Numbered from the stretch's first letter, positions 11,441 to 28,599 are shown. The stretch: 64,000 bases of DNA from Steroidobacteraceae bacterium (GCA_049792815.1 JBARBG010000081.1:8296-72295), one strand, 5' to 3'. Notes: generated by a model not told the origin, from the letters alone. A program made the numbers and translations.

Positions 11441-11547
11441 GTCTAGGGTTCCGGCCTGTTGCAGCAACGGGTGTCTGGTCCGAGAGAGGCAGTCCGGGCG
11501 CGCAGCAAAGCGCCCCGGATACACGGCGGGACAAAAGCCCGGGAGAT
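11441..11547 (+). promoter_or_regulatory. Guanidine-I riboswitch aptamer (ykkC-yxkD leader, subtype 1)
   Basis: Invariant blocks in canonical order: CUAGGGUUCCGG 11443-11454, hairpin, GGUCCGAGAG 11477-11486, hairpin CCGGGCGC/GCGCCCCGG, ACACGGCGGGACAAAAGCCCGGGAGA 11521-11546. Lies about 125 nt upstream of the receptor ATG. Confidence 0.85.
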
Positions 11548-11670
11548 TGGGTTGCGAGGCGCCAGTGCTGGCCCTCGGGACAATCTCCATTGCGGTGGTT
11601 GTCCCGGGTGCCAAGAGCACAACGCTCCTCGCAAGTCGGCCAACGGCTTGTGCAAGGAGGTCCATCTGCA

Positions 11671-14301
11671 ATGGTAGTCCCACGAAATCGGCCCGCCAAA
11701 GGGTCAAGACTTGATCAGCGTTGTCGCGACGTCAGCACGGTCGCCGCAACCGTAATAGCCATTCTCTATGGCGCCGCTGCGGGCGCGGAGAACACCACGG
11801 CCGCTGAAACCGAGCTTGCAAGTGCGGCAACGGTTGCGGATGCCGGCACGAGCACTGCCGACACGGGTCTGGCGGAAGTGGTCGTGACTGCCACACGTCA
11901 CGAAGCATCGGCCCAGGATCTCCCCCTCAGCATCACCGCAGTGACTGCTGAGCAACTGCAGCAGGCCGGCATCGGGGACCTCTCCGATCTGTCTCACACC
12001 TTGTCGGGTGTGAACTACACGGACAAGGGGCCGTTCAGCGGCGTCAATGGCGCAAACCTGGTCATTCGCGGACTCAACAGTGAAACGACAGCCGGCCTCC
12101 CGGCCGCGGCGTCACCGGTCGTGCCCCCGGTTTCCACCTATGTCGACGATACCCCGATATTCGTGAGCCTGCGCTTTCAGGACCTCGACCGCGTCGAGGT
12201 CTTGAAGGGCCCGCAGGGAACTCTGTACGGATCAGGTTCCCTGGGTGGCACGATCAAGTTCATTGAGCACGCACCCGATCTGTCGGGGTTTGATGCCAGG
12301 GTGGAAGCGACGATCAGCGATACTCAGCACACCAGCGCGCCTAACGAAGATGTGAGCGGCATGATCAACATTCCGCTCAGCGAGACGATTGCCGTGCGCG
12401 GGAACGCCAGCTTCACGCACGATGCGGGATTCATCAATCAGCCGAATCTCTTCGTGCTTGATGCAAGCGGCGCGCCGGCCGAGTCACAACCCGGAAACCC
12501 ACTCAGTCAACCGGTGTTCTACCGTCGCGATCACGTGAACGACTATGGATACAGCGCAGCGCGCATTTCCGCTCTGTGGAACCCGAGCGAGGCGCTGCGA
12601 GCGCAGCTATCGTACTACCATCAACTCTCCACGGCCCAGGGGTATCCGTACGCGGCGACCAGCACGGCTGCCTTCAACATGCCCATCAGCCCCAACACCC
12701 AGCCTGGTGGAACTTTTACCAATCCGCCGCTGGCGCCGCAGCTGTACACCGAATCCGTCCCGACCGGCCTTGACCGGCTTTCGGACGCCGAGAACAGCAC
12801 CACCACCACGACGGACAAAGTCGACCTGGTGGCACTCACTTTCGATTACGACCTCGGCTTCGCGACCCTCACTTCCTCGACGTCGTGGGCAGATCACTCC
12901 AATGGCACGCGGGCGGACGAGACTGCGCAGTACAGCAACTTCTTCTTCTATCAGAGCCTTTACGGCCAGTATCCGCGGACGTTCATTCAAGGCTACGAGA
13001 AGCTTGACGATCGACCCATTACCCAGGAAGTGCGGCTGGTTTCGCAGGAGGGGGGCGCGTTGGAGTGGGTGGCGGGCCTGTTCTACAACCATCAGCAGAC
13101 CAATATCCAGGAGCACGACTTCGAGCCGGGCTATCTCGACTTCTACAACGCGTGCGAGCCAATCTACGGTCAGAGCGCGGGCGATGGCACTACCCCTTCA
13201 TACTGCGGAGTCGGCGAGACCGGCGCCGGCACCGTCAGCTCTTATGCTGGGATTCCCATCGTAAAGGACCAGGCGTACATCGGAGACTTCGAAACGACGT
13301 TCAGGGATCTGGCACTGTTCGGGGATATCACCTGGCATGCCACTTCCAACTGGAGCGTGACCGGGGGTGGGCGTGTCTTCAAACAGACCATCTCGGCGTC
13401 CCAGCAAACGGGTCTGCTGTTTGACGCCGGGTCGTTCTTCGCCCCTTCGATTCCGATTGCGAACATCTCGCTCAGCGACACCTGGCGTCGCGCCACCTGG
13501 AAGTTCAACACCTCCTATCAACTGGACAAGACCAATCTGGTGTATGCGACTTTCTCTCAGGGATTTCGACGCGGCAGCGTAAACGCGCTGCCGCCTTCTG
13601 AGTTAGGTGGTAGCTATACCCTACCAGATGCACTGCGAAATCTTGCGCCGGACACGGCCAACAATTACGAGGTCGGTGTCAAGGGAACCGTCGACAATAA
13701 GTTCAGATACTCGGTCGCTGCGTATTACATTGACTGGCGTAACGTGCAGGAAGGGCTGCAACTCACGCCGCTGGTGCTGCCGGCATCCATGAATATCGGG
13801 CATGCGTACAGCAAGGGAATCGAGACTGAAATGGATGCGTTGATCACGCGCAACCTCGAGGCACAGCTCGACTACACCTACGACCAAACGAAATTAATGT
13901 CCTTGAATCCTCTGTTCGTGTCGCCAAATGTATCGGCACCGCCGCCCGGTGTGGGCACCGCCCTTCCCGGCACGCCGCGCAATAGCCTCGCCCTCACACT
14001 GAAGTACGGACACATTCGGATAAATGATGGCGAGCTGTACTTCTCCGTCAGTGGTCACTACCAAAGCTCGGTCTTGCCAGCGCTTTCGGCAACGGTGCCC
14101 ACCGTCGCCGGCTATACGATGGCGAGCGCACGTGTTGGGTATGACGTCGCGCACTGGAGCGCAGCTTTATTCGTGAACAATCTCACGAACAATCTAGGCG
14201 TAACCTCGTATCAGGATCCCGCGATCTTCGGAAACCGGGCGCAAGCCATCGTGTCGCAACCGCGTACGTTCGGGCTGACGGTCGCCTACTCGTACAAATA
14301 G
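11671..14301 (+). CDS. TonB-dependent outer-membrane receptor
   Basis: 876 aa from ATG 11671, with AAGGAGG 11 nt upstream. Signal peptide, TonB-box-like AEVVVTAT, plug motifs (IRGLNSE, VEVLKGPQGTLYGSG) and a beta-barrel C-terminus. The track ORF starting at 11212 is a false extension over the riboswitch. Confidence 0.85.
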   Translation: MVVPRNRPAKGSRLDQRCRDVSTVAATVIAILYGAAAGAENTTAAETELASAATVADAGTSTADTGLAEVVVTATRHEASAQDLPLSITAVTAEQLQQAGIGDLSDLSHTLSGVNYTDKGPFSGVNGANLVIRGLNSETTAGLPAAASPVVPPVSTYVDDTPIFVSLRFQDLDRVEVLKGPQGTLYGSGSLGGTIKFIEHAPDLSGFDARVEATISDTQHTSAPNEDVSGMINIPLSETIAVRGNASFTHDAGFINQPNLFVLDASGAPAESQPGNPLSQPVFYRRDHVNDYGYSAARISALWNPSEALRAQLSYYHQLSTAQGYPYAATSTAAFNMPISPNTQPGGTFTNPPLAPQLYTESVPTGLDRLSDAENSTTTTTDKVDLVALTFDYDLGFATLTSSTSWADHSNGTRADETAQYSNFFFYQSLYGQYPRTFIQGYEKLDDRPITQEVRLVSQEGGALEWVAGLFYNHQQTNIQEHDFEPGYLDFYNACEPIYGQSAGDGTTPSYCGVGETGAGTVSSYAGIPIVKDQAYIGDFETTFRDLALFGDITWHATSNWSVTGGGRVFKQTISASQQTGLLFDAGSFFAPSIPIANISLSDTWRRATWKFNTSYQLDKTNLVYATFSQGFRRGSVNALPPSELGGSYTLPDALRNLAPDTANNYEVGVKGTVDNKFRYSVAAYYIDWRNVQEGLQLTPLVLPASMNIGHAYSKGIETEMDALITRNLEAQLDYTYDQTKLMSLNPLFVSPNVSAPPPGVGTALPGTPRNSLALTLKYGHIRINDGELYFSVSGHYQSSVLPALSATVPTVAGYTMASARVGYDVAHWSAALFVNNLTNNLGVTSYQDPAIFGNRAQAIVSQPRTFGLTVAYSYK

Positions 14302-14366
14302 AACTGAGGAGGGGATCGAGGCGGTTGGGCCATGCGCTGGCTTGACAGATGCGTCCTGAATGGCAG

Positions 14367-14392
14367 TATTACGGAATATGAAAAGCGTAATA
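14367..14392 (+). promoter_or_regulatory. Candidate operator: perfect 7-bp inverted repeat TATTACG-N12-CGTAATA between a TTGACA box (14342-14347) and the nikR-like start
   Basis: Read directly from the sequence. The position fits autoregulation by the adjacent ribbon-helix-helix regulator. Function is unproven. Confidence 0.3.
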
Positions 14393-14397
14393 ATGCC

Positions 14398-14853
14398 ATG
14401 AACGCGAGGTCGATCCCGGAACTGGCGCGCCTGTCGGTGAGTCTGCCCAATGAGCTGCTCGTGCAACTGGACGCGATGGTCGAGGAGCGCGCATTGCCCA
14501 GTCGCTCGCAGATGATCGCCGAGCTCATCCGTCACGCACTCGCGGAGCACAGCCAGGCGCGCAGCGCGGCCGTCCTTGCGGGAACTGTCACCTTGATCTA
14601 TCGCGCCGAAAGCGGCCGGGTCCACCATCTGCTGGCACAGACCCAAACTGTCTTCATCAAGGAGGTCATCTCCTCACAGCACGTGTTTCTGGAGAACGAC
14701 CAGTCGCTGGAGGTCCTGCTGGTCCAAGGGCCCACCTCTCGCCTGGAGGCCCTGTGCGATGCCCTGCGCAAAGTCCGCGGCGTGCAACAGGTGAAACTGG
14801 TCACAACCACTGCGTTGTTGCCGCCGCTGCATTCGCACGGAAGTGCCAGATGA
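14398..14853 (+). CDS. NikR-family ribbon-helix-helix regulator with a degenerate nickel site
   Basis: 151 aa from MNARSIPELARLSVSLPNELL (RHH) plus a NikR_C-like ACT fold. The stop overlaps the next start (ATGA at 14850). Confidence 0.75.
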   Translation: MNARSIPELARLSVSLPNELLVQLDAMVEERALPSRSQMIAELIRHALAEHSQARSAAVLAGTVTLIYRAESGRVHHLLAQTQTVFIKEVISSQHVFLENDQSLEVLLVQGPTSRLEALCDALRKVRGVQQVKLVTTTALLPPLHSHGSAR

Positions 14854-15680
14854 AGGATTCCGCCACCGCCGATCCAAAGCGCGCACGGGAGCACGCGCGG
14901 GCTATGGCAGGCCTACAGGCGGAAGCAATGCCCACCGTGCCGGCCAGCAGCGCTACCGATCTACCGGATGGAGTCGCGGCCGGGAACATGCTGTGGGAGG
15001 AGACCGTTGCGTCAGGTGGCTATGCATCCAAAGAGCTGGGGCGGGGCGCTCGCTTGCGCCTCATCGACCTACATGGCGATGGGTGCGTATCGATGCTGGT
15101 CTTCAATGCCGAGCGTCCGGTTGAGCGCTTGAATGTCGCCGATACCCTGAAGGTGCAGTGGAGCGCCCAGCTGCGAGCTGGCCGCCTGCTGTTGTCCGAC
15201 ATGGGTCGAGTTCTCTTCAGCATCCTGGAGGACGGGGCTCAAACCCACGATGCGTTCTGCGGGCCTTCAAATTCGCGCACGAATGCCCGGAAGTTCGGCG
15301 ACGGAGCTAACTGGGGCGAAAAGCCCAGTGCTCGTGATCGCCTCATCCTGGGCGCCGCTAAGTTCGGCCTTGGTGCAAAGGATGTTCATCCATGCATTAA
15401 CTGGTTCAAATTGGTGCAGATTGCCCCCGATGGCACCACGATGTTGCATGCCGGTCCGTTCTCGCCTGGACGGTCACTGACATTGCGCGCCGAAATGAAC
15501 GTCATCGTCGTACTGGCCAATTGTCCACACGTGCTCGATACGCGTCCTGACTATGCCGTAACGCCGGTACGGCTCAGCGCCTGGCGGGGCCCGATCGCAG
15601 GCGGCGACGATGAAGTTCGTAACGCGACGCCCGAAGCACTGCGGGCCTTTCTCAATGTCGAAGAATACTTCCATCGCTGA
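14850..15680 (+). CDS. Urea-carboxylase-associated protein 1 (DUF1989; carboxyguanidine deiminase CgdA-like)
   Basis: 276 aa from MKDSATADPK. DUF1989-type sequence, paired with a second DUF1989 gene and the carboxylase. Confidence 0.8.
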   Translation: MKDSATADPKRAREHARAMAGLQAEAMPTVPASSATDLPDGVAAGNMLWEETVASGGYASKELGRGARLRLIDLHGDGCVSMLVFNAERPVERLNVADTLKVQWSAQLRAGRLLLSDMGRVLFSILEDGAQTHDAFCGPSNSRTNARKFGDGANWGEKPSARDRLILGAAKFGLGAKDVHPCINWFKLVQIAPDGTTMLHAGPFSPGRSLTLRAEMNVIVVLANCPHVLDTRPDYAVTPVRLSAWRGPIAGGDDEVRNATPEALRAFLNVEEYFHR

Positions 15681-15713
15681 CATTGCACACAACTTGCACG
15701 GTTCTGCCACGCC

Positions 15714-16361
15714 ATGAGTGACTCTGTAATTGCCGAGCTTTCCCGCGACATATTGCTCGATGAGGTTATTGCTGCGCGTGCGGCCTGGGATCACTTCGTG
15801 CAGGCAGGCCAGACGCTGCGCATTCTCGACATCGAAGGCAATCAGGCGGTCGACTTCCTGCTTTATGCGGCACATGACGATACCGAGCGCTACAGTGCGC
15901 AAGACACCATTTCCGCGCAACGCAATATCTTTCTGCGCACCGGCACCGTTTTGATGTCGAATGAAGGCCGGCCCATGGCGCGGATCGCCGCCACGACCGT
16001 CGCCTACCACGACACCATCGGTGGTGCCTGCAGTTGCGAGAGCAATACGCTGCGCTATGGCTACCACACGAAGTCGCAACATGCCTGTGTAGAGAACTTC
16101 CTGCTTGCGAACGCCCGATACGGTCGAACCAAGCGCGACATCGTCTCGAACATCAATTGGTTCATGAATGTGCCGGTGGAGCCCGACGGCACCCTTGGAA
16201 TCGTCGACGGAATCTCGGCTCCGGGTCTGTACGTGGACTTGGAAATGTTGATGGATGTCGTCGCCGTCATTTCCAACTGCCCGCAGGTCAATAATCCCTG
16301 TAACGGTTTTAATCCCACGCCGGTGCGCGTCCTGATCGCGTCCGGGGCGGGCCAGCGCTGA
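15714..16361 (+). CDS. Urea-carboxylase-associated protein 2 (DUF1989; CgdB-like)
   Basis: 215 aa, paralogous to the preceding gene and immediately upstream of the carboxylase. Confidence 0.8.
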   Translation: MSDSVIAELSRDILLDEVIAARAAWDHFVQAGQTLRILDIEGNQAVDFLLYAAHDDTERYSAQDTISAQRNIFLRTGTVLMSNEGRPMARIAATTVAYHDTIGGACSCESNTLRYGYHTKSQHACVENFLLANARYGRTKRDIVSNINWFMNVPVEPDGTLGIVDGISAPGLYVDLEMLMDVVAVISNCPQVNNPCNGFNPTPVRVLIASGAGQR

Positions 16362-16364
16362 TGG

Positions 16365-19300
16365 GTGCGAGGCGTGCTTGAGAAGGTGCTTATTGCCAAT
16401 CGTGGCGCAATTGCCTGCCGGATACTACGCACGCTGCGGCGTCTGGGCGTGGCGTCGGTGGCCGTGTTCGCCGAATCCGACGCAGGTTCGCTGCACGTCG
16501 CCCAGGCCGACGAGGCGGTATGCATCGGCGCATCACCGGGCAGCGCCAGTTACCTCGACGGTGCGGCCTTGATCGCCGCGGCCCGCAAGACCGGCGCGCA
16601 GGCCATTCATCCCGGGTACGGCTTTCTCAGTGAGAACGCAGAATTTGCCGAACAGTGCGAGCTGGCCGGACTGACGTTCATAGGCCCGACACCACAAAAC
16701 ATACGCGCCTTTGGCCTCAAGCACCGCGCGCGCGCAATAGCGCGGGAGCAGTCCGTGCCACTGGTGCCGGGCTCCGACCTGCTTCGGGACTTGCCGGCGG
16801 CGCGGGCCGCAGCGCGCCGCCTTGGCTTTCCCGTCATGCTCAAATCAACGGGTGGCGGTGGCGGCATCGGTATGCGCGCCTGCGCGGACATGAAGGCCCT
16901 CGAGGAGGCCTTCCCGGTCGTGTCGCGACTGGCGGCAAATCACTTTGCGGACGGCGGCATGTACCTCGAGCGGCTACTGCCCGAGGCGCGGCACGTCGAG
17001 GTGCAGATCTTCGGCGATGGCAGTGGTCGTGCGGTGGCGCTGGGCGAGCGCGATTGCTCGCTGCAACGGCGCCACCAGAAAGTCATCGAAGAGGCACCGG
17101 CACCGCAGCTCACACCTGAATTGCGCAGCGGGCTTGCCGCATGCGCCATCCGGCTCGGCCGCGCCGTTGAGTACCGCTCGGCCGGGACTGTGGAGTTCCT
17201 GCTGGACCCAGTGCGCGAAGAATTCTATTTCCTCGAAGTCAACACTCGCCTGCAGGTCGAGCACGCGGTCACCGAGGAAATTACCGGAGTCGATCTTATC
17301 GAGTGGATGGTTCGCGGTGCCGGGGGAGACTACTCCTTTCTCGATGCATGGAGCACGCAGCAAAACTCACCACCGCGTGCACACGGCTGGGCCATTCAGG
17401 CGCGCCTGTATGCCGAAGATCCACGCGAGGAGAATCGGCCGAGCAGCGGCACGCTGACCGACGTTAAATGGCCCACCGACATTCGCGTTGAGACCTGGGT
17501 GACGTCCGGCACGGAGGTCACGACGCATTATGATCCGCTGCTCGCAAAACTGATCGTCACAGGTGCCGATCGTCCGAGCGCAGTCACCGCGCTGCAGCGC
17601 GCGCTGGGCGGTACGCGCCTGGCGGGTCTTGAGAGCAATCTGCAGTGGCTGAAGCAGATTGCTCACAGCCAGATGTTCATCTCCGGGAGAGTCTCCACCC
17701 AGGCGCTTGCGAGCATGCCGTACGCCTCCCCGGCGGTGCGGGTACTCAGTGGCGGACTGGCGACCAGCATTCAGGACTACCCAGGGCGAAGGGGCTACTG
17801 GAACGTTGGGGTCCCGCCCTCGGGACCTATGGACAGCCTCGCTTTTCGTCTGGGTAATCGTCTCTTGGGCAATCCGGACGGCGCCCCGGGGCTTGAGGTC
17901 ACGGCGACCGGTCCAACCCTGTGTTTCGGTAGTGCCACCACGGTATGTCTCGCGGGGGCCGACACCGGTGCGCGGCTGGACGGCTCCCCGCTGGAACCGT
18001 ACACGGTGACGACGGTCGCCGCGGGCCAGACTCTAAAGCTTGGGCGAATTAGCGGCCCGGGCTTGCGCGCTTATGTGCTCTTTGCCGGGGGCATCGAGGT
18101 GCCACCCTACCTTGGTAGCTGCTCGACTTTTACCCTCGGGCGGTTCGGGGGGCATGCCGGTCGCAATCTCGCGGCGGGCGATGTCCTGCATCTCGGGGGT
18201 CAACAACCGGCCTTCGCCGCGCGGCCAGAGTCGCAGCTAAGACTCCCGCGGCTGCCAACACTCACGCACACCTGGACTGTGCGGGTGCTTTGCGGTCCCC
18301 ACGCCGCGCCGGACTTCTTCACCGCTGCGGACATTGACACAATCTTAGGCGCGCAATGGAAGGTCCACTACAACTCCAACCGCACCGGAGTACGGCTGAT
18401 CGGACCAAAGCCTCAGTGGGCACGCCGTGACGGCGGGGAGGCGGGCCTGCATCCTTCGAATATTCACGACAATGCCTATGTGGTTGGGGCCGTTGATTTC
18501 ACCGGCGACATGCCCATCATCCTGGGCCCCGACGGCCCCTCGCTCGGGGGCTTCGTGTGTCCGTTCGTCGTGATCAGTGCGGACCTGTGGAAACTCGGTC
18601 AACTCGCTCCGGGAGACAGCGTGCAACTCGAATGCGTCGAAGCATCGACCGCACACGCCGCGGAGCAGGTACAGAGGGCGTGGATTACCGGCGACCCGAG
18701 CGGCGATGCCGGCATTGCCGAGACGGTAGCAGCGCCCGGCGCGAGTACCCGTTCGAGCGGTACTGCCGTCCTGTTCGATCTTGAGGGGCGGGAGGCGCGC
18801 CCCAGGACGCTGTATCGGCGCCAGGGCGATCGGCACATTCTCATCGAATACGGGCCCATCGTACTGGATCTAACGCTACGGTTGCGCGTACATGCCCTGA
18901 TGCTGGAGCTGGAGCGCCTCAGCCTTGAGGGCGTCCTCGAGGTAACGCCGGGCATCCGCTCGCTGCAGGTTCATTATGATCCTGACATTCTGTCACTGAC
19001 TACCTTGCTGCAGACCCTGGTGGATTGCGAGGAACGCTTAGGCGGTCTGCAGGATTTCCAGATTCCTTCGCGCGTTGTGTGGCTGCCGCTGTCTTTTGCG
19101 GACCCTGCGGTGGCCGATACCGTAGAACGATATATGAGTACGGTGCGTGCGGATGCGCCCTGGTGCCCGGACAACATTGAGTTCATCAGGCGCATCAACG
19201 GCCTGGCGTCGATCGAGGATGTGCAACGCATTGTGTTCTCGGCACGCTACATGGTCCTGGGTCTGGGGGATGTCTATCTCGGGGCACCCGTGGCGGTGCC

Positions 19301-20045: not shown

Positions 20046-20046
20046 C

Positions 20047-21858
20047 ATGGACGGACACGATCTGGAGTGGAGCGTTGGGGCAATCGCTCGAGACGTGAAT
20101 AAAGGTGCACGCACCGCTACCTCCGTCGTGCGTGAGGCCCTCGCGCGTGCGCGCGCGTACGACAAGATTCAGCCGCAGGTGTGGATCAGTCGCGCGGCCG
20201 ATGCGGATCTGCTGGCGCAAGCTGCGCTCATTGACGCAAGGATTGCCGCAGGGGAGTCGCTGGCACTTGCCGGAGTGCCCATTGCAGTCAAGGACAATAT
20301 CGATGTTGCGGGCCTCGCGACGACGGCTGCCTGCCCGCAGTTCGCCTACCGGCCAGAGCGCTCGGCAACCGTCATCGAGTATCTGACGCGGGCGGGCGCG
20401 ATCGTGATAGGCAAGACCAACCTCGATCAGTTTGCGACCGGCCTGGTCGGGACGCGCAGCCCTTATGGCGCGGTGGGCTGTGTTTTCAATCGTGAATACG
20501 TGAGTGGGGGCTCCAGCTCCGGTTCCGCGGCAGCCGTTGCCGCGGGCGTCGTGCCGTTGGCCCTCGGCTCCGATACGGCTGGCTCCGGACGCGTACCGGC
20601 GGCCTTCAATCACCTCATTGGCTTCAAGCCCACGCGTGGCCGCTGGAGTACCCGCGGACTGGTGCCGGCCTGTCGCAGTCTTGACTGCATCAGCACCTTG
20701 ACACGCAATGCCGCAGATGCGGCGCTGGTTGATGCGGTGCTCACGCATTTCGATGCCGACGATCCCTTTGCAAGACGTGCGCCCCCGCACGCTCCTGCAG
20801 TCGGCGCAGAGTTTCGGCTCGGCATACCACAGCCGGCTCAGCTGGCTGACCTTGCGCCTGAGGATGCGCGCTGCTATGCCGCAGCGAGTGCGGCGGTGCA
20901 AGGCATCGGCGGCAGACCCGTCAGCGTCGATGTGGCGCCGCTCGTTCAGGCGGCGCGTCTGTTGTATGGCGGACCATGGGTCGCCGAGCGCACCGTCGTG
21001 GCGGATGCGGTGCTGCAGGAGCATCCGACCGCCGTTCATCCGGTGGTCCGCTCCATCCTGCAGGCCGCGAAGGGACTGTCCGCTGCCGACGCATTCCGCG
21101 GCCTATATGCCCAGCAGGGTTACGCCCGGGAAGCCGAGCGGCTGTGGGAGCAGATCGACGTACTGCTGCTGCCGACGACGCCGACCACTTATCGACAAAG
21201 TGAGGTACTCGCGGAGCCCTACGGGCTCAATGCGCGGCTCGGCCTGTATACCAACTTCGTGAACCTGCTCGATATGAGCGCCATCGCGGTACCCGCCGGT
21301 TTCCGTAGCAACGCTACCGGTGTGGGTGTGAGTCTCATCGGCCCAGCGTGGGCCGATTCAGGGCTGCTGGTGCTTGCCGAGCGCTACACCCAAAGCATGA
21401 GATTCCCGATACCAGCGCTCGATACGCAATCGCGACCGGCGCAAGTCCAGCTGGCGGTGGTCGGCGCCCACCTCAGCGGCATGCCGCTGCATTGGCAGTT
21501 GACTTCGCGCTCCGCCCGTCTCGTGCAACAGACCCGTACGGCACCGGTATACAGGCTGTATGCGATGACGGGTCAGACCCCGTCAAAACCAGCGCTGGTG
21601 CACGCAGGCAGCGACGGGGCTGCCATCGAAACGGAAGTTTACGAGCTGGACGTTGCCGGTTTCGGCAGCTTCGTGAACGAAGTGCCCGCGCCACTGGCCA
21701 TCGGCACGGTGCTGCTGGCCGATGGCTCAAGCGTCAAGGGGTTTGTCGCCGAGCCCCGCGCGATCGTCGGCGCGCTCGACATAACGGCCGACGGTGGCTG
21801 GCGCGCCTATATTTCCCGGCTGGCCTCTACCGCACCAACATCTGGAGCCTCCCAATGA
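20047..21858 (+). CDS. atzF: Allophanate hydrolase (amidase-signature N-domain plus AtzF-type C-domain)
   Basis: 603 aa from MDGHDLEWSV, with a GGSSSGSAAAVA amidase signature. The start is 1 nt after the carboxylase stop. Confidence 0.85.
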   Translation: MDGHDLEWSVGAIARDVNKGARTATSVVREALARARAYDKIQPQVWISRAADADLLAQAALIDARIAAGESLALAGVPIAVKDNIDVAGLATTAACPQFAYRPERSATVIEYLTRAGAIVIGKTNLDQFATGLVGTRSPYGAVGCVFNREYVSGGSSSGSAAAVAAGVVPLALGSDTAGSGRVPAAFNHLIGFKPTRGRWSTRGLVPACRSLDCISTLTRNAADAALVDAVLTHFDADDPFARRAPPHAPAVGAEFRLGIPQPAQLADLAPEDARCYAAASAAVQGIGGRPVSVDVAPLVQAARLLYGGPWVAERTVVADAVLQEHPTAVHPVVRSILQAAKGLSAADAFRGLYAQQGYAREAERLWEQIDVLLLPTTPTTYRQSEVLAEPYGLNARLGLYTNFVNLLDMSAIAVPAGFRSNATGVGVSLIGPAWADSGLLVLAERYTQSMRFPIPALDTQSRPAQVQLAVVGAHLSGMPLHWQLTSRSARLVQQTRTAPVYRLYAMTGQTPSKPALVHAGSDGAAIETEVYELDVAGFGSFVNEVPAPLAIGTVLLADGSSVKGFVAEPRAIVGALDITADGGWRAYISRLASTAPTSGASQ

Positions 21859-22859
21859 GTCGCCTGAATCGAATTCGCACCATGGTTGGCGCGCTGCTCA
21901 TGGCAGTCGCGGTGTTACCGGCCCAGGCCGAGGTCAAAGTGGGTGTGTCCGATTGGACCGGGTGGGTAGCCTGGTATGTGGCACAGGATCAAGGGTACTT
22001 CCGAAAATACGGGGTGGACGTAAAACTCATCTGGTTTGCCAACTACAGTGACTCCATCTCGGCGCTCTCCAGCGGGCAATTGGATGCCAACAGCCAGACC
22101 TGGTCCGATACTCTTGGACCACTCGCCAAGGGGCTGCCGCTGAAGGTGGTGCTCGTCAATGATAATTCCGCCGGAAACGACGCACTCATGGTGGGCCCGA
22201 AGGTCAAGGCCTTTGCGGATTTGCGTCATCATACCGTGGCGCTCGAGCAGTATAGCGTCTCGCACTTCGTGCTCTACACCGCCCTGGCCCGCAATGGGTT
22301 GAGCCCAGATGATGTCACGGTAGTGAATCTGTCGGCTGGGGATGCGGCCGCGGCATTCATGAGCGGCAGGGTGGATGCGGCGGTGGTCTGGAATCCCTGG
22401 ATCAGCCAGATTCAAAAGAGCGGTAAAGGCACGGCGCTGTTCAGTTCAGCGCAGATGCCCGGCCTGATCCCTGATCTGCTCGTCGCCCAGGGGCGATCGT
22501 TACAGAGCAAGCGCAAGGACTTCATCGCGATGGTGCGGGCATGGTTCGATACCGTCGCGTTCATCCGCGCGCAACCTGATCGGGCTGTCGCCATCATGTC
22601 GAAGGTCGTCAGCATGGCGCCCGACCAGTACCGTGTGTTCCTGCCTGGAACGCGCTTCTTCGATGCTGCGGCCAATCAGGAGGCATTCGATCCCAAAAGC
22701 CCACGCAGCCTGGTCAGCGTGGCTCCCAATCTAGCGGCATTTCTATTGGCAAATAAACTCATCGACGGACGCCCCGATGCCGCCAAGGGCGTGGATCGCT
22801 CCGTCATCGACGCAGCGATCGCTGCCGGGGCGGGCCCGCCACCGGCCGTGAAGCCATGA
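21855..22859 (+). CDS. ABC transporter periplasmic binding protein, NitT/TauT (NMT1-like) family
   Basis: 334 aa from MSRLNRIRTMVGALLMAVAVLPAQA (signal peptide). ATGA overlap with atzF. Confidence 0.8.
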   Translation: MSRLNRIRTMVGALLMAVAVLPAQAEVKVGVSDWTGWVAWYVAQDQGYFRKYGVDVKLIWFANYSDSISALSSGQLDANSQTWSDTLGPLAKGLPLKVVLVNDNSAGNDALMVGPKVKAFADLRHHTVALEQYSVSHFVLYTALARNGLSPDDVTVVNLSAGDAAAAFMSGRVDAAVVWNPWISQIQKSGKGTALFSSAQMPGLIPDLLVAQGRSLQSKRKDFIAMVRAWFDTVAFIRAQPDRAVAIMSKVVSMAPDQYRVFLPGTRFFDAAANQEAFDPKSPRSLVSVAPNLAAFLLANKLIDGRPDAAKGVDRSVIDAAIAAGAGPPPAVKP

Positions 22860-23653
22860 GACGCAGCTCCGTATGGAAGATTCGCGGTTGGTTGAGCCAG
22901 CGAAGCTACTGGCTGCTCGCGGCAGTCGGCCTCATCGTGCCGCTGATTTTCTGGACGGCGTTGACGCTTCTCGGAACAGTAAATCGTGTGTTCCTTCCGG
23001 GCCCAATCGATGTACTGCAGCGGACTGCATCCTGGTTCAACAACGATCATCTGATTGATGACATCCTTATCAGTACTTTTCGCGTTACCGCCGGCTGGCT
23101 TTTGTCGGCGCTCATCGCCATGCCCCTTGGTTTGCTGATCGGTTCTTTCCGTGTCGTGCAGGCACTGCTGGAGCCGCTGACGGACTTCGTGCGCTACATG
23201 CCGGCGGTTGCCTTCATTCCCCTGGTGATGCTCTGGGTCGGTATCGATGAGTCGGCCAAGGTGGCCATCATTTTCATCGGCACATTCTTCCAGATGGTAC
23301 TGATGGTGGCAGAAGATGTTCGCCGCGTGCCAATGGCCCAGATCGAGGCGGCGCAGACCATGGGCGCAACGCGCTGCGAGGTGATAGAAAAGGTCATCGT
23401 TCCTTCGGCCAAGCCCGCGTTAGTGGACACCTTGCGTATAACCATGGGCTGGGCCTGGACATACCTCGTCGTGGCTGAACTGGTCGCTGCGAATTCGGGG
23501 TTGGGCTACGCCATAATCAAGGCACAACGTTTCCTGCAGACCGACAAGATATTTGCCGGCATCGTGCTCATCGGGGCGATCGGCCTGGCGATGGACCAGG
23601 GGTTTCGGCTCCTTCATAGGCTCGCCTTCCCGTACCTGCATGCCCGGAACTGA
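22856..23653 (+). CDS. ABC transporter permease, NitT/TauT family
   Basis: 265 aa, polytopic, BPD_transp_1-type. ATGA overlap with the binding-protein gene. Confidence 0.85.
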   Translation: MRRSSVWKIRGWLSQRSYWLLAAVGLIVPLIFWTALTLLGTVNRVFLPGPIDVLQRTASWFNNDHLIDDILISTFRVTAGWLLSALIAMPLGLLIGSFRVVQALLEPLTDFVRYMPAVAFIPLVMLWVGIDESAKVAIIFIGTFFQMVLMVAEDVRRVPMAQIEAAQTMGATRCEVIEKVIVPSAKPALVDTLRITMGWAWTYLVVAELVAANSGLGYAIIKAQRFLQTDKIFAGIVLIGAIGLAMDQGFRLLHRLAFPYLHARN

Positions 23654-23654
23654 C

Positions 23655-24491
23655 ATGGCCATCATCAGCTGTCGATCCGTGTGCAAGGTGTTTGGTGAAG
23701 GCCAGAACCGCGTGACGGCACTTGACAACGTATGTCTCGATGTGACCGAGGGGGAGTTCGTGACCTTTGTTGGTGCATCCGGCTGCGGCAAGTCGACCCT
23801 GCTGCGGATACTCGCCGGACTTGAGACCCAGACGGCCGGTGAGCTGGAGGCAGCAGGAGCATCCATCCTGGCGCCGGGTGCCGATCGTGCGATGGTGTTT
23901 CAGGACTACAGCCTTTATCCATGGCTTACGGTGATCAATAACATCAAGTTCCCGCGACAGTTGTCGGCGCATACCCGCGATCGCACCAGCGCTGATGTTG
24001 AGGCCGCCTCCGGCCGTGCCGACGCGCTGCTGCGTGTCATGGGGTTGAGCCACGCGGCCCATGCATACCCCTCGCAGCTCTCCGGCGGAATGCAGCAGCG
24101 GGTCGCGATCGCACGAGCCCTGATGACGAGGCCGAGAATTCTGCTGATGGATGAGCCATTCGGTGCACTGGATGCGCAGACACGCGAGGTCATGCACGAT
24201 CTCATCCTCCACGTTTCGGAGCTCGAGGGCTGCACGGTCGTGTTCGTGACGCACGATGTGGAGGAGGCGATCTATCTCGGCCGCCGCGTCATTCTGATGG
24301 CGCCGAAACCCGGTCGCATAGACTCCATCTATGAAGTGCCGCTCCCGGCCAAGCGCGTGCTTGGCATGAAATACTCTCCGGAATTCCTCGCTTTGCGCTT
24401 GCGTGTTCTTGATCGGATCCGCGAGACCTCCGGCATGCGCACCGATTTGGACCTGCTGCAGCGCCTCTCACAAACTGCGGTCGAAACGTAA
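23655..24491 (+). CDS. ABC transporter ATP-binding protein, NitT/TauT family
   Basis: 278 aa from MAIISCRSV, with Walker A GASGCGKST, signature LSGGMQQR and Walker B ILLMDEP. Confidence 0.9.
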   Translation: MAIISCRSVCKVFGEGQNRVTALDNVCLDVTEGEFVTFVGASGCGKSTLLRILAGLETQTAGELEAAGASILAPGADRAMVFQDYSLYPWLTVINNIKFPRQLSAHTRDRTSADVEAASGRADALLRVMGLSHAAHAYPSQLSGGMQQRVAIARALMTRPRILLMDEPFGALDAQTREVMHDLILHVSELEGCTVVFVTHDVEEAIYLGRRVILMAPKPGRIDSIYEVPLPAKRVLGMKYSPEFLALRLRVLDRIRETSGMRTDLDLLQRLSQTAVET

Positions 24492-25934
24492 ATGCGTGCG
24501 CAGCACAGTGCAAGCGAGGCGCTGCAACACGCAGAATCGGCACTGCGCGGTGCACCGCATGATCCGCGCCTGCTGTTGCAGCGAGCACAGTGCCTGCTCG
24601 AACTGGGTCAAACCGCCCGGGCATGCGAGGCCGCTGCCGCGGCACAACTTTACGCGGCGACGGATGCCGCCGTACTGGATGCCATAGGCAATGTCTTAAC
24701 CAGGGCAAGTGACCAGGCACGGGCGCTCGCAGCCTTCGAACAGGCGGTGGCATTGGCACCTGATGAGCCGCATTTCGCCTTCAACCGCGCGGCGGTGCGG
24801 CGCTTCCTGGGGGATCTTGACGGAGCCGAACGCGACTACGATCGGGTGATCCGCCTCAAGCCCGATGATTACGAGGCCTACCTCAATCGATCTGAATTGC
24901 GGGCGCAGAGCCCGGACCGCAACCACACGGTGGAACTGGAAGCGCGACTGTCGCGAGGTGTCAAGGGTTGGCAGGGCGAGGTGGCGCTGCGCTACGCACT
25001 GGCCAAGGAATACGAGGATCTCGCCCAGTACGAGCTGTCATTCGAGCAACTGGCGTGCGGGGCTCGAGTGCGGCGCGAGCACCTGCGGTACGACATTGCG
25101 ACCGATGTTGCCACAGTCGATTGGATCATCGAGTCATACTCGGCCGCTACGGCGTCGGCTGCCGTGAAAAGCGCTGATGACGCGCCGATCTTCATCGTTG
25201 GGCTGCCGCGCAGCGGCAGCACGCTCGTAGAGCGCATTCTCGGCAGTCATTCGACCATCCGCGCGGCTGGAGAGCTGTCGCATTTTGCATTGGCGGTGGT
25301 CGCGGCCGTGGCGGCCGGTTCCGGCGATGGCCGCGGTCCGAAGTCGCGCCGTGAGCTCGTGAAACAGTCTGCGGCAATTGATTTCGGGCGCCTCGGATCC
25401 GACTATTTATCGCGAGTTCGCGCGGCCGGCATCACCGCCGGGCGCTTCACGGACAAGATGCCGCTGAATTATCTGTATTGCGGACTCATCCAGCGCGCGC
25501 TGCCGCAGGCGCGTATCGTACACGTGCGGCGTAGCCCGACTGCGGCCTGCTATGCAATGTTCAAAACGTTGTTCAAGGACGGTTATCCATTCTCGTATGA
25601 CCTCGAAGAACTTGGGCGTTACTACATTGGGTATCGTCGCCTGATGGACCACTGGCAGGCGGCTATGCCGGGGTGCATTTACGAGTTGAGCTACGAGGCA
25701 TTGATCGCCAACCAGCGCGTTGAGACGCGGCGGCTGCTTGAGTTCTGTGGCCTCGAGTGGGAGGAGGGCTGCATGCAGTTTCATGCCAATACCACGGCTA
25801 CCATGACCGCCAGTGCCGTTCAGGTGCGCCGTCCACTTTATGCCACCGCCGTGGCGCAGTGGCGTAACTATGCGCGCCACCTCGAGCCGTTGCGGGAACA
25901 GCTTGTCGCGGCCAGCATCAATGTCGAGGAGTAA
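24492..25934 (+). CDS. TPR-repeat protein fused to a sulfotransferase domain
   Basis: 480 aa with N-terminal TPR-like repeats and GLPRSGSTLVERIL (PAPS 5'-phosphosulfate-binding-loop-like). The start directly abuts the preceding stop (TAAATG). Confidence 0.7.
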   Translation: MRAQHSASEALQHAESALRGAPHDPRLLLQRAQCLLELGQTARACEAAAAAQLYAATDAAVLDAIGNVLTRASDQARALAAFEQAVALAPDEPHFAFNRAAVRRFLGDLDGAERDYDRVIRLKPDDYEAYLNRSELRAQSPDRNHTVELEARLSRGVKGWQGEVALRYALAKEYEDLAQYELSFEQLACGARVRREHLRYDIATDVATVDWIIESYSAATASAAVKSADDAPIFIVGLPRSGSTLVERILGSHSTIRAAGELSHFALAVVAAVAAGSGDGRGPKSRRELVKQSAAIDFGRLGSDYLSRVRAAGITAGRFTDKMPLNYLYCGLIQRALPQARIVHVRRSPTAACYAMFKTLFKDGYPFSYDLEELGRYYIGYRRLMDHWQAAMPGCIYELSYEALIANQRVETRRLLEFCGLEWEEGCMQFHANTTATMTASAVQVRRPLYATAVAQWRNYARHLEPLREQLVAASINVEE

Positions 25935-25943
25935 CATTAACCC

Positions 25944-26951
25944 ATGAAGCACCATGCATTCATCGGCTGGATTGCAGCCGCCTTGACACTCATTGGCGCG
26001 CCGCAGGTCGGTGGTGCCGTGGAACGCGCGAGTCTCGGCGTAGTCAATTGGATTGGCTACGGCCCAATGTACTGTGCGGCGGCGAATGGCTCCTACCGCA
26101 AGTATGGCTGGGATGTGAAACTGGTGACCTTCAGTGACAACTCACTGATGACCGGGGCGCTCGAGGGTGGTGAGCTCGAAGCTTCGACCCTCACTTATGA
26201 CCAGGTGATCAGCTCGGCATCCAAGGGATGGAAGCTCAGGGTCGTGATGCCGCTTGATTATTCCGTCGGAGGCGACGCGATCCTCGCCAAAGTCGCAATC
26301 CGCACCGTCAAGGACCTTAAGGGCCGTAACGTCGCCTTCCAGCCCTCGTCGCCGTCCGACTTTCTCCTGGGTTACGCGCTCGCTCAGGCCGGGCTTTCCC
26401 AGAGTGACATTCGCGCCGTCAATGCTACGCCCGAGGGCGTCGTTGCGATCATGGCCAGCGGGTCAGTAGATGCCGGGGTGACCTATGAGCCCAGCGTGTC
26501 GATGATTCGAAAACTCGGCGGAGGCAATCAGTTTCATGTGCTGTTGTCCTCGCGCGAGGCGCGCGGGCTGATCACCGACGTGCTCGCCTTGAAGGAAAGC
26601 ACTATCGCCAAGAATCCGCAGCTCGTCCAGGCGCTGATCCGCGGCACCATGGACGGATTGGACTTCATGACCCGTGAGCCCGACAAGGCTGCCGCCCTCA
26701 TCGGCCGGGCGCTTGGGCTTAGTGTTGCGGATGTCAAGGCGCAGCTGCAGAACATCGAAAACCCGCCGCTGGCGCAGCTCGGTGATGTGTTCAAGAAGGC
26801 ACCTGTATTGCCGTCGTTTTATGCAAGCGGCACCATCATCGGCGGGATCCTGAAGAGAGAGGGGCAGATTCGGACGCTACCCCCGATTGAAGCAACCTAC
26901 GATGCTTCCTTCATTGCCGCGCTGCAGGCACACCCAGGAGATCTGCGATGA
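25944..26951 (+). CDS. Second NMT1/NitT-TauT-like periplasmic binding protein
   Basis: 335 aa with a signal peptide. Paralogue-like to 21855-22859 (WIGYGPMY vs WTGWVAWY blocks). Confidence 0.75.
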   Translation: MKHHAFIGWIAAALTLIGAPQVGGAVERASLGVVNWIGYGPMYCAAANGSYRKYGWDVKLVTFSDNSLMTGALEGGELEASTLTYDQVISSASKGWKLRVVMPLDYSVGGDAILAKVAIRTVKDLKGRNVAFQPSSPSDFLLGYALAQAGLSQSDIRAVNATPEGVVAIMASGSVDAGVTYEPSVSMIRKLGGGNQFHVLLSSREARGLITDVLALKESTIAKNPQLVQALIRGTMDGLDFMTREPDKAAALIGRALGLSVADVKAQLQNIENPPLAQLGDVFKKAPVLPSFYASGTIIGGILKREGQIRTLPPIEATYDASFIAALQAHPGDLR

Positions 26952-27949
26952 GTGGGCTATTTCGCAGGAAGGGCGCTTGGCCCAATGCAGTCATGATTGC
27001 CTACACACTTGGCGGCTGGGCGCTCGGAGTGTGGCTGCTCACGCGCCCCGAGTTCCTCCTGAATATCGCCGGCGTGCTCCTCACGGCACATACGCTCGTT
27101 TGTTCCGGTTACATGATTCATGAATGCGCGCATCAGAATGTGTTCGCACGCATTGCTTCCAACGATCGGCTCGGAATGCTGATGGGCTGGTTGAACGGGG
27201 CATGCGTGGCCGATTATCAGAGGCTCAAGATGAAGCACCTGCGCCATCACACCGATCGGCTGGACGTTGTGACCTTCGACTACCGCGCCGTCCTCAAGCG
27301 GGCACCGCCGTGGATTCGCCGTGCGGTGCTGGCGCTCGAGTGGGCTTATTTCCCGGTCGTGGAGTTCATGATGCGCGTCATGGTCGTTGTGGCACCTTGG
27401 TACGACGGAACCGTTCGTGAACGGGTGCGCACGGTGACCCTGATGGCGGTGCGGGTGGCGTTATGGGTTGCACTGGCGCTGGTATCGGTGAAGGCACTGG
27501 TGCTGTATGGCGTCTCCTATCTCATATTCCTGCACGTGCTGCGTTTCATGGACGCCTTCCAGCACACTTATGACGTGTTTCCGTCGCGATCGCTGTCTGC
27601 GGCGCCGCCCGATCCGCGTCGCACGCGCCGCTACGAGTACGAGAACACCTACTCGAACCTGTTGGCGACCCGTCGGACCTGGCTCAATCTGCTGGTGCTG
27701 AATTTCCCCTACCACAATGCGCATCACACCAAGACCGGCGTGCCGTGGTATGAGCTGCCGGCTCTGCACCGTGAACTCTACGGCGAGCATGATCCGCAGG
27801 TCATACCCTCTCGCAGCTTGATCGTGAATTACCACCGTCACCGGGTAGCGCGCGTCCTGGCAGAGGATTACGGTTCGGTGGCCCACGGGCAGCAGCGCGC
27901 CAGCGGCTTTCTCGGGGCGGTGGGCGTCTCGTTCCTGACGGCCGTATGA
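26948..27949 (+). CDS. Membrane fatty-acid-desaturase/hydroxylase family di-iron enzyme
   Basis: 333 aa, TM-rich, with three His boxes HECAHQ, HLRHH and HNAHH. ATGA overlap upstream. Confidence 0.75.
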   Translation: MSGLFRRKGAWPNAVMIAYTLGGWALGVWLLTRPEFLLNIAGVLLTAHTLVCSGYMIHECAHQNVFARIASNDRLGMLMGWLNGACVADYQRLKMKHLRHHTDRLDVVTFDYRAVLKRAPPWIRRAVLALEWAYFPVVEFMMRVMVVVAPWYDGTVRERVRTVTLMAVRVALWVALALVSVKALVLYGVSYLIFLHVLRFMDAFQHTYDVFPSRSLSAAPPDPRRTRRYEYENTYSNLLATRRTWLNLLVLNFPYHNAHHTKTGVPWYELPALHRELYGEHDPQVIPSRSLIVNYHRHRVARVLAEDYGSVAHGQQRASGFLGAVGVSFLTAV

Positions 27950-28599
27950 GCGCTGCGGGTGCAACCGCGCTCATTGTGATCGACATGCAGCGCGACTTCC
28001 TCGACCCGCGCGGCTACATTGGCCACAGTGGCGTCGATGTCGGCATACTGCGCGCCGCCATCCCCAATGTGCGGCGGCTGCTCGATGCCGCGCGCTCCGC
28101 CGATATTCATGTGGTTCACACCCGCGAAGGGCATCGCCGGGATCTGGCCGATCTCAACCCCGCCAAGGCCCGGCGTGCCGCTCGCGTTGGTGCGGCGATC
28201 GGCAGTCAGGGCCCGCTCGGTCGGCTGCTGGTGCGCGGAGAGCAGGGGCACGGGATCATCGATGAACTGTTACCTCTGCCCGCGGAGGTCGTTATCGACA
28301 AGCCGGGGTTTGGCGCCTTCTATGCGACGGATCTGGAGCTCGTGCTGCGCGCCTGGGGAGTGACATCATTGACGTTGGCTGGAGTCACGACTGATATTTG
28401 CGTGCACTCGACGCTGCGCGAGGCGGTCGACCGCGGCTTCGAGTGTCAAACCGTTGGCGACGCATGCGCGGCGGCCGATAGCTCGATCCATGAGGCGATG
28501 CTTCGCTGCATCGCGGGCGAGGGTGGGATACTGGGTCGGGTCGTGAGCACCACTGAGGCAGTGGCAGCGTGGGGCCGCGATTCTCGCAGCGGTACCTGA
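27946..28599 (+). CDS. Isochorismatase-like cysteine hydrolase
   Basis: 217 aa with LIVIDMQRDF (Asp) and TLAGVTTDICVHST (nucleophile Cys). ATGA overlap upstream. Confidence 0.8.
   Translation: MSAAGATALIVIDMQRDFLDPRGYIGHSGVDVGILRAAIPNVRRLLDAARSADIHVVHTREGHRRDLADLNPAKARRAARVGAAIGSQGPLGRLLVRGEQGHGIIDELLPLPAEVVIDKPGFGAFYATDLELVLRAWGVTSLTLAGVTTDICVHSTLREAVDRGFECQTVGDACAAADSSIHEAMLRCIAGEGGILGRVVSTTEAVAAWGRDSRSGT

Follow-up and report, generated by a model that had tools for sequence, protein, structure and literature searches.

The stretch of DNA analysed here (the window, 64,000 nucleotides (nt)) comes from the metagenome-assembled genome (MAG) of a soil Steroidobacteraceae bacterium (GCA_049792815.1, JBARBG010000081.1:8296-72295); an identical database protein also carries the label Steroidobacteraceae bacterium MAG. 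It holds an array of 13 genes on the + strand (11671-28599), 3' of a Guanidine-I riboswitch, in which the enzymes of the guanidine carboxylase pathway are combined with a TonB-dependent outer-membrane receptor, a NikR-like regulator, an ATP-binding cassette (ABC) transporter with two binding proteins, a sulfotransferase, a desaturase-like membrane enzyme and a hydrolase of the isochorismatase family (Table 1).

Table 1. Features of the array and its regulatory region (feature, coordinates in the window, strand, basis of assignment)
Metallo-beta-lactamase-fold gene, divergent	10434..11201	-	Pfam Lactamase_B, E 4.6e-21
Guanidine-I riboswitch aptamer	11432..11547	+	Rfam RF00442, 88.7 bits (gathering score 63), E 1.5e-14, full model 1-107
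Putative expression platform	11576..11660	+	two predicted hairpins
TonB-dependent outer-membrane receptor, 876 aa	11671..14301	+	PF07715 plug and PF00593 barrel
Promoter-like TTGACA-N19-TATTAC	14342..14372	+	read from sequence
Palindromic operator candidate (ATTAC-N14-GTAAT)	14368..14391	+	6 nt before NikR-like start codon
NikR-fold regulator without canonical nickel site	14398..14853	+	Pfam RHH_1 (PF01402) and NikR_C (PF08753)
Carboxyguanidine deiminase subunit (DUF1989, UAAP1 type)	14850..15680	+	TIGR03425, 283 bits (cutoff 206)
Carboxyguanidine deiminase subunit (DUF1989, UAAP2 type)	15714..16361	+	TIGR03424, 325 bits (cutoff 285)
Biotin-dependent 'urea' (guanidine) carboxylase, 1226 aa	16365..20045	+	TIGR02712, 1720 bits (cutoff 1304)
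Allophanate hydrolase	20047..21858	+	NF006043, 780 bits; TIGR02713, 711 bits; amidase and AH_C domains
Periplasmic binding protein 1 (NMT1/SsuA-like)	21855..22859	+	TIGR03427, 171 bits (cutoff 334)
ABC permease	22856..23653	+	BPD_transp_1; 60% identical to pMET-2 permease
ABC ATPase	23655..24491	+	ABC_tran; 58% identical to pMET-2 ATPase
TPR and Sulfotransfer_3 protein	24492..25934	+	Pfam Sulfotransfer_3, E 2.4e-42; TPR repeats
Periplasmic binding protein 2	25944..26951	+	NMT1/NMT1_2; 34% identical to binding protein 1
Membrane di-iron oxygenase, fatty-acid desaturase family, 333 aa	26948..27949	+	PF00487, E 3.8e-33, 115.7 bits (cutoff 29.7)
Guanylurea hydrolase-like cysteine hydrolase (isochorismatase family)	27946..28599	+	PF00857, E 1.8e-43

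Among the loci compared with the array, numbered from L001, those fetched via homologues of the desaturase-like protein were mapped by tblastn with the 13 array proteins. One contig of a second MAG (overlapping loci L174 and L005) has the array in full, together with the riboswitch and the divergent metallo-beta-lactamase-fold (MBL) gene upstream. Large parts are shared by about ten further loci: the order from carboxylase to last gene recurs in L001-L009, L029 and L084, and that from riboswitch to sulfotransferase in L168. Such recurrence, of the whole in one genome and of large parts in about ten loci, indicates that the arrangement is not due to chance. Binding protein 2 followed by the desaturase-like gene is an order conserved in Steroidobacteraceae, related Gammaproteobacteria and Acidocella. 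Related Gammaproteobacteria (L012, L019, L020, L022, L023, L026, L028 and L041) have the same parts rearranged into separate units, one with Guanidine-I and the receptor gene (then the sulfotransferase gene), one with Guanidine-I, the DUF1989 pair and the carboxylase gene, and one with binding protein 2, the desaturase-like gene, the hydrolase, the permease and the ATPase. The original prediction, made on the window sequence, was to fall if the extra genes failed to co-occur with the carboxylase core elsewhere, and this co-occurrence is found in related and in distant genomes.

That prediction had described 13 co-directional genes downstream of the riboswitch and named a family for each; all junctions were checked and bear it out, and every family is matched in Pfam and NCBIfam. 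The same is true of the 4-nt ATGA-type overlaps it listed at 14850, 21855, 22856, 26948 and 27946, of gaps of 0-1 nt at 20045/20047, 23653/23655 and 24491/24492, and of larger gaps of 96 nt (14302-14397) and 33 nt (15681-15713), to which two small gaps of 3 nt (16362-16364) and 9 nt (25935-25943) must be added. Its start of the array at 11441 has to be corrected, as this position falls within the riboswitch and the receptor gene begins at ATG 11671; a longer, mechanical open reading frame from 11212 passes through the riboswitch. G+C content, overall and at third codon positions, is uniform over the array genes, and a consensus scan for promoter- and terminator-like sites inside the array found fewer than in shuffled sequence, with nothing above background.

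The core was predicted to be the pathway of guanidine carboxylase with carboxyguanidine deiminase and allophanate hydrolase, and it has the components that define such operons: the carboxylase (TIGR02712), with its biotin carboxylase, carboxyltransferase and biotin carrier domains all found, the DUF1989 pair (TIGR03425, TIGR03424), an allophanate hydrolase with an AH_C domain, and a guanidine riboswitch. Given the riboswitch and the DUF1989 partners, guanidine rather than urea is the presumed preferred substrate of the carboxylase. With the known Guanidine-I operons (Gca, CgdAB, AtzF and a NitT/TauT ABC transporter; Nelson 2017 and Schneider 2020, following the summaries in PMC12186494 and PMC12508155) the window shares the four pathway enzymes, the riboswitch class and the assimilation of guanidine nitrogen. 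It differs from them in that the riboswitch precedes the gene of a TonB receptor and not the core genes, the core is headed by a NikR-fold regulator with an operator, the ABC transporter, which has two binding proteins, belongs to another subtype, and four genes are appended.

Two variations on this core were seen among the loci. The 'carboxylase' of L001 (1027-3057) and, similarly placed, of L084 is a 676-aa, carboxyltransferase-only protein matching window carboxylase residues 458-1125 at 71% identity in otherwise syntenic clusters; no biotin carboxylase or biotin carrier domain was found anywhere in these 21-kb loci, and the adjoining amidase of L001 has no AH_C domain. In L049, L051, L052, L056 and L067 (about 5400-6400, - strand) a second Guanidine-II element separates the carboxylase gene from the second DUF1989 gene, an architecture matched by the Vreelandella boliviensis operon, with Guanidine-I at its start and Guanidine-II before the carboxylase gene (PMC12508155).

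Riboswitch, receptor and regulator

The aptamer is followed by a putative expression platform. The RNA fold of 11545-11680 (-65.6 kcal/mol, z = -3.9 against shuffled sequences) has two predicted hairpins, of which the first, CGGGACAA...TTGTCCCG (11576-11606), repeats the CGGGACAA at the 3' side of the aptamer (11527-11534), and the second pairs CTCCTC (11625-11630) with the Shine-Dalgarno AAGGAGG (11654-11660), which it would sequester. Translational control by such a platform is plausible.

The receptor has the plug and 22-strand barrel domains of its superfamily. It is not placed by NCBIfam in a subfamily of known substrate, all receptor models being far below cutoff (the best, TIGR01783, at 127 bits against 223.5), and solved structures in the Protein Data Bank give generic matches, mainly over the plug. 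Its link to guanidine is seen in what precedes it, as Guanidine-I lies directly upstream in all ten receptor orthologues of more than 50% identity in genome loci, and likewise in L092-L094, L168, L171 and L174. The same receptor family is also seen in other company. In L173 (1964-9578), where a riboswitch was not detected, the receptor gene is followed by genes for M20 peptidase, RidA, DUF1028 and LysR-regulator proteins and for the sulfotransferase, and in L019, L020, L026 and L028 (about 3400-8850) the operon of Guanidine-I and receptor also has an HpaB-type flavin monooxygenase, DUF1028 and an NCS1 permease of the cytosine/allantoin type. This suggests that further, different nitrogen-compound modules are attached to the same receptor family.

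By its neighbourhood the sulfotransferase travels with the receptor. The three independently sampled orthologues (62-65% identity) all adjoin the receptor and/or the guanidine core, one being directly 3' of the receptor (L171), one four genes 3' of it (L173) and one after the ABC ATPase, as in the window (L172), and units of receptor and sulfotransferase under Guanidine-I are present in L022, L023, L041 and L171.

The NikR-like regulator has the ribbon-helix-helix and NikR_C architecture of the nickel repressors and reaches none of the NikR equivalog cutoffs, the best being NF003381 at 96.6 bits (cutoff 105) and the others further below. The four residues that we take to be the nickel ligands of Pyrococcus NikR (2bj1) align with T, H, F and S, so that one of the four ligands of the canonical square-planar site, made of three His and one Cys, is kept in the window protein. 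This His is also the only one of the four conserved in the family, as judged from an alignment of 11 sequences whose members are 73-87% identical to the window protein (its best database homologue is 96% identical). C120, H145 and H147 are invariant family-wide, and H95 nearly so.

Three sampled contexts and a metagenome scan yielded 85 regulator loci. Where enough downstream sequence is available the NikR-like gene is directly followed by the DUF1989 pair and then the carboxylase gene in 67 of 68 loci. In 69 of 77 loci the 160 nt that precede the gene include a palindrome, ATTAC-N14-GTAAT, at a median of 19 nt from the start codon, against a total of 77 occurrences in 788,585 nt of regulator loci. 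Its single occurrence in the window, ATTACGGAATATGAAAAGCGTAAT, is inside the 96-nt gap before the regulator gene, where this candidate operator overlaps the promoter-like TTGACA-N19-TATTAC, a sequence that also stands upstream of the NikR-like gene in L089 and that the consensus scan missed because its spacer is 19 nt. Judged by the palindrome's position in the gap, the array is probably controlled at two places, with the riboswitch acting on the receptor gene and the operator on all genes from that of the regulator on; read-through from the first part into the second is possible. The layout of a riboswitch-led set of 13 genes stands as originally predicted, whereas a single simple unit probably does not, given this operator and promoter-like site.

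Riboswitch and regulator appear to be exchanged between loci. None of the loci headed by the NikR-like gene has a riboswitch at the regulator position, and loci with no regulator carry Guanidine-I exactly there (L019, L020, L026, L028 and L171), which suggests an equivalent control that responds to substrate. We infer that the NikR-like protein is an alternative to the riboswitch for control of the core. The protein resembles the NikR repressors of E. coli, H. pylori and Pyrococcus (1q5v, 2ca9 and 2bj1 among their structures) in its ribbon-helix-helix and ACT-like NikR_C domains and in a palindromic operator overlapping the promoter of the regulated operon. It is distinct from them in its ligands, its operator sequence and its predicted regulon, a carboxyguanidine deiminase/carboxylase operon in place of nickel uptake.

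The regulator could instead be a genuine nickel sensor and no sensor of guanidine at all. In that case the nickel-independent, ATP-costly carboxylase route might be turned on when scarce nickel disables nickel-dependent guanidinase or urease. The NikR fold is in keeping with this, the conserved C120, H145, H147 and near-invariant H95 could form a different metal site, and a paper on Acinetobacter baumannii suggests, by its title and abstract, that a urea carboxylase operon there is under metal-linked control. The family-wide loss of three of the four canonical ligands, the scores below every equivalog cutoff, and the placing of the gene where sister loci have Guanidine-I all speak against it, and we regard such a nickel switch as unlikely, if far from negligible.

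Transporter, di-iron enzyme and terminal hydrolase

The last genes of the array can be compared with plasmid-borne guanylurea degradation. A tblastn search of plasmids with the last gene gave as its top three matches, at 65% identity, plasmids of Pseudomonas sp. KHPS1, P. hydrolytica KHPS2 and P. mendocina MET, all degraders of metformin or guanylurea (PMC9800807, PMC11647477). Plasmid pMET-2 has a single such gene, NDO41_26705 (65% identity over 203 aa), adjoined by a nucleoside deaminase gene and with IS66 elements nearby, and it is taken to be the published BB_00025 because the single copy, the deaminase neighbour and the nearby insertion elements match the published description. The module there runs binding protein, BguH, GuuH, permease, ATPase, where BguH is a biguanide-to-guanylurea hydrolase (PMC11647477). 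In the window the order is binding protein 2, desaturase-like gene, GuuH-like gene, and in the rearranged loci permease and ATPase then follow, so that the desaturase-like gene occupies the slot of the guanylurea-making enzyme. The window module further resembles that of the P. mendocina guanylurea/metformin pathway (pMET-2/pKHPS) in the residue signature of its hydrolase, in a permease and an ATPase about 60% identical, and in degradation downstream by the carboxylase pathway. It differs in lying on the chromosome, where it is merged with the carboxylase operon of a gammaproteobacterium from soil, in having a membrane di-iron oxygenase in place of a deaminase-fold biguanide hydrolase, in binding proteins that are only about 30% identical, and in the absence of insertion elements and metformin genes.

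The transporter itself conforms to this comparison. The original prediction counted a NitT/TauT ABC transporter in the pathway core, and the family is correct but the canonical carboxylase-associated type is not: neither binding protein reaches the cutoff of TIGR03427 (171 and 86 bits), for which the core binding protein of L088 scores 550 bits and that of pMET-2 87 bits. With the ABC genes beside canonical cores the permease and ATPase share only about 30-40% identity, and both binding proteins give generic matches to solved structures. These scores and identities assign the transporter to the type that accompanies guanylurea hydrolases on plasmids.

The desaturase-like protein has the histidine boxes of its superfamily (HxxxH, HxxHH and HxxHH; H58, H62, H97, H100, H101, H256, H259 and H260), all eight occupying sites that are kept in 95% or more of 81 homologues, and the enzyme is on this account likely to be catalytically competent. 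Homologues were placed in 80 species-level genome loci (36-85% identity); in 31 of these the fetched flank contains a DUF1989 or carboxylase gene. Of the 41 non-cyanobacterial loci with full 10-kb flanks, 20 have a core gene, and 36 a core, ABC or hydrolase gene. In a neighbour-joining tree the cyanobacterial homologues are outside the proteobacterial clade, all of whose sub-clades include guanidine contexts. In Moraxellaceae, Pseudomonadales, Cellvibrionales and other Gammaproteobacteria the gene is divergent from, or within, a guanidine operon, and 16 loci have a two-hairpin GGACGRCC guanidine-II motif 30-100 nt upstream of it. Of ten motif loci scanned, six exceed the Rfam gathering score for Guanidine-II (L049, L050, L051, L052, L056 and L074); L042, L047, L058 and L059 have the GGACGRCC motif, below Rfam confirmation. 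Clustering of the neighbouring open reading frames also brings out two recurrent partners, usually 3-50 nt downstream: an MBL-fold protein of roughly 260 aa, closest to lactonases, in 33 loci, and a xylose-isomerase-like TIM barrel of roughly 285 aa in 15, with both present in L055 and L056. By its context the gene is a member of the guanidine regulon, and this context argues for a substrate that is not an acyl lipid.

The published system closest to this in function is MgdH/MgdL of V. boliviensis, in which hydroxylation gives a surprisingly stable hemiaminal that requires a second enzyme (PMC12508155). Common to both are an accessory oxygenase inside a guanidine carboxylase cluster, an association with guanidine-II, which binds methylguanidine as well as guanidine where Guanidine-I binds guanidine only (PMC12508155), and a dedicated second enzyme, in other lineages the MBL or TIM-barrel partner of the desaturase-like oxygenase. 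MgdH is, however, a soluble 2-oxoglutarate/Fe(II) dioxygenase, unrelated in sequence to the membrane di-iron, His-box enzyme of the window, and none of the 13 array genes encodes a 2OG-FeII_Oxy domain. MgdL is treated as a hypothetical protein with about 216 homologues (PMC12508155), whereas the MBL and TIM-barrel partners come from large known folds. The resemblance is a functional analogy only. In L088, where a NikR-led guanidine carboxylase cluster has no desaturase-like gene, a DIOX_N/2OG-FeII_Oxy dioxygenase gene begins beside the cluster (20376-20477) and may be an MgdH-type alternative. By description only, the window enzyme can also be likened to MocD, a His-box membrane oxygenase from the desaturase superfamily whose proposed role is demethylation of the rhizopine 3-O-methyl-scyllo-inosamine. 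The catabolic cluster of MocD acts on a small hydrophilic nitrogen compound and includes a xylose-isomerase-like TIM barrel, MocC; MocD has ferredoxin and reductase partners, MocE and MocF, of which there is no counterpart in the window cluster.

Other neighbours of the desaturase-like gene recur in smaller sets of loci. Creatininase-family genes (PF02633) are within 6 kb in L031, L032, L037, L046, L081 and L082, which hints at creatinine-type cyclic guanidines as inputs; a lactonase-like partner would allow such cyclic substrates, though this is speculation. A glutamine-synthetase-like gene (Gln-synt_C, about 455-470 aa) is directly upstream in L072, L074, L081 and L082 (about 8500-9930), following the ABC transporter in L072, L074 and L082, with a TIM-barrel gene and a second Guanidine-I, ahead of the core genes, on the downstream side. 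Three alphaproteobacterial loci, two Acidocella-type and one Methylovirgula (L034, L036 and L037), have the alpha subunit of a Rieske-type ring-hydroxylating oxygenase about 1-2.5 kb upstream (e.g. L036 6497-7732, - strand), and LysR regulator genes recur in Acidocella-type and related alphaproteobacterial loci.

A more conventional view of the desaturase-like protein is that it is a true lipid desaturase or hydroxylase, by which the membrane is adapted, on induction by guanidine, to the chaotropic cation or to the transporter load. Its PF00487 membership and classical His boxes fit, as do the cyanobacterial relatives with no guanidine context and the lack of an electron-transfer partner. The AlphaFold2 model, with a mean predicted local distance difference test (pLDDT) of 46 and a predicted template-modelling score of 0.44 (alignment of 11 sequences, homologues of at least 67% identity), is too poor to reveal a small-molecule pocket, and a sequence search against solved structures gave no match. 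A membrane-adaptation gene would not be expected to be translationally coupled between a periplasmic binding protein gene and a hydrolase gene, to fill the BguH slot of the plasmid module, to be paired consistently with a lactonase-like MBL or TIM-barrel enzyme, or to be embedded in catabolic operons rather than stress operons, and we consider the lipid role rather improbable.

The last gene product is an intact Asp-Lys-Cys hydrolase, its D13, K119 and C152 aligning with D36, K142 and C175 of biuret hydrolase. Biuret amidohydrolase is its best NCBIfam match and biuret and triuret hydrolases its best solved structures, so that the end of the array could be read as a tail for biuret and triuret, impurities of urea fertiliser, with guanidine one of several inputs and a biuret hydrolase making the allophanate that would suit the cluster's own allophanate hydrolase. 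As BiuH, however, the protein fails on score, with 251 bits for NF050097 against a cutoff of 370, which the validated guanylurea hydrolase also misses at 271 bits. It fails also on residues, since biuret hydrolase loses all activity with K145A and more than 90% of it with Q215A (PMC7948467), and these positions are F122 and E192 in the window, Y and E in the validated MET enzyme. Among 30 orthologues in the fetched loci the first is F in 25 and Y in 5, and the second is E in all 30. An aromatic residue and Glu in place of Lys and Gln would fit a cationic guanidinium substrate. Purified BB_00025, the 65%-identical enzyme, strongly favours guanylurea (11 umol/min/mg) over biuret (about 0.4 nmol/min/mg) (PMC9800807). 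We therefore give a biuret tail little credence; the last gene product is a probable guanylurea hydrolase that would barely act on biuret. The original prediction had left the extra genes outside the described pathway, and for this one that no longer applies, given its identity to a validated enzyme and the hydrolysis of guanylurea as a published feeder of the guanidine carboxylase pathway (PMC9800807).

The flanks of the array can be dealt with briefly. The MBL-fold gene divergent from the riboswitch has an 87% identical counterpart at the corresponding place in the second MAG (L174); as a candidate for the partner-type MBL of the desaturase-like gene it was rejected, being of a different family, and its membership of the system is uncertain. 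A frameshifted copy of the glycosidase upstream in L174 was sought in the window without a match. The array ends at 28599, because genes for a DUF4198 protein (28627-29457) and a fused ABC exporter (29539-31620) come directly after it on the opposite strand; tRNA genes are further downstream at 33737-33808 (- strand), 37358-37429 and 44731-44804 (both + strand).

A proposed extended system for guanidine nitrogen

Taken together, we propose, with a probability of roughly 0.6, that the array is a conserved, extended nitrogen-scavenging system that funnels guanidine and its derivatives into the carboxylase pathway. Intracellular guanidine would switch on the receptor via the Guanidine-I riboswitch, and the NikR-like repressor would separately gate the rest of the array from a promoter in the 96-nt gap; transcripts of the receptor gene might also read through. 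The receptor would bring guanidine, guanylurea and related compounds across the outer membrane, and the ABC system with its two binding proteins would carry them across the inner one. The di-iron enzyme would use O2 to hydroxylate a substituted or cyclic guanidine or guanylurea at a carbon bonded to a guanidino nitrogen, and so release guanidine or guanylurea. It would be a non-homologous equivalent of the dioxygenase MgdH, and where other lineages have a lactonase-like MBL or TIM-barrel enzyme next to it, that enzyme may finish the reaction, as MgdL does for MgdH. The last gene product would turn guanylurea into carboxyguanidine or guanidine, which would enter the core route from guanidine through carboxyguanidine and allophanate to ammonia and CO2. 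A system reaching from uptake across both membranes to allophanate is what was originally predicted; the co-occurrence of the extra genes speaks for it, whereas a canonical ABC transporter and a hydrolase outside described biochemistry are not retained, and a single unit run by the riboswitch is improbable.

Several points weigh against this proposal. The functions of all the genes are read from sequence, and most of the genomes are MAGs. A TonB-dependent receptor for a 60-Da cation is unexpected, the consensus scan found no U-tract terminator 3' of the aptamer, and the proposed internal promoter has an atypical spacer and was not called by that scan. The sulfotransferase finds no place in the scheme. 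For the di-iron enzyme the cluster encodes neither ferredoxin nor reductase, and the window has no partner-type MBL or TIM-barrel gene; guanidine context is missing from 5 of the 41 proteobacterial loci with full flanks and from all the cyanobacterial homologues, and to our knowledge nearly all characterised PF00487 enzymes act on lipids or hydrophobic substrates. The residue signature of the hydrolase was derived in this analysis from one validated enzyme.

A riboswitch-controlled guanidine operon might also lie by chance beside an unrelated sulfonate-type transporter, lipid desaturase, hydrolase, siderophore-type receptor and nickel regulator. The generic annotations (SsuA_fam, FA_desaturase, isochorismatase, TonB-siderophore, NikR) speak for this view, but it is highly improbable, being largely refuted by co-occurrence: synteny is kept across classes, guanidine riboswitches directly precede both the receptor and, in 16 loci, the desaturase-like gene, the NikR-like gene is tied to the core, and the specific tests fail for a siderophore receptor, a NikR nickel site, a biuret hydrolase and a canonical binding protein.

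The pathway, the riboswitches and the guanylurea hydrolase family are already known. It is possible, with the odds against it, that the cluster also hides two new components of guanidine biology, a family of di-iron oxygenases with the desaturase fold and a NikR-fold repressor with no nickel site. In the literature covered, including 2025 reviews but not the primary riboswitch gene lists, we found no published description of a riboswitch-controlled TonB receptor, of the NikR-fold regulator with its operator, of the desaturase-family oxygenase with its partners, or of a linked sulfotransferase. Although guanidine riboswitches are widespread, where guanidine comes from in nature and what many of the genes associated with these riboswitches do are open questions (PMC12186494, PMC12508155, PMC12623156). 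To these the cluster and its relatives bring candidates that can be cloned, namely the oxygenase with its partners, the protein regulator with its operator and the riboswitch-controlled receptor.

If true, the oxygenases, by oxidatively freeing guanidine or guanylurea from guanidines that are substituted or cyclic, would form an enzyme class new to this pathway, the repressor would be a protein sensor of guanidine-type compounds replacing the riboswitch in hundreds of soil bacteria, and the receptor would imply active uptake of guanidine compounds across the outer membrane. The array also presents a chromosomal, apparently ancient soil version of a guanylurea hydrolase module so far known from metformin-degrading wastewater plasmids. 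Guanylurea is a breakdown product of the nitrification inhibitor dicyandiamide and arises also from the breakdown of metformin, which gives the system a bearing on what becomes of nitrogen pollutants from farming and pharmaceuticals in soil.

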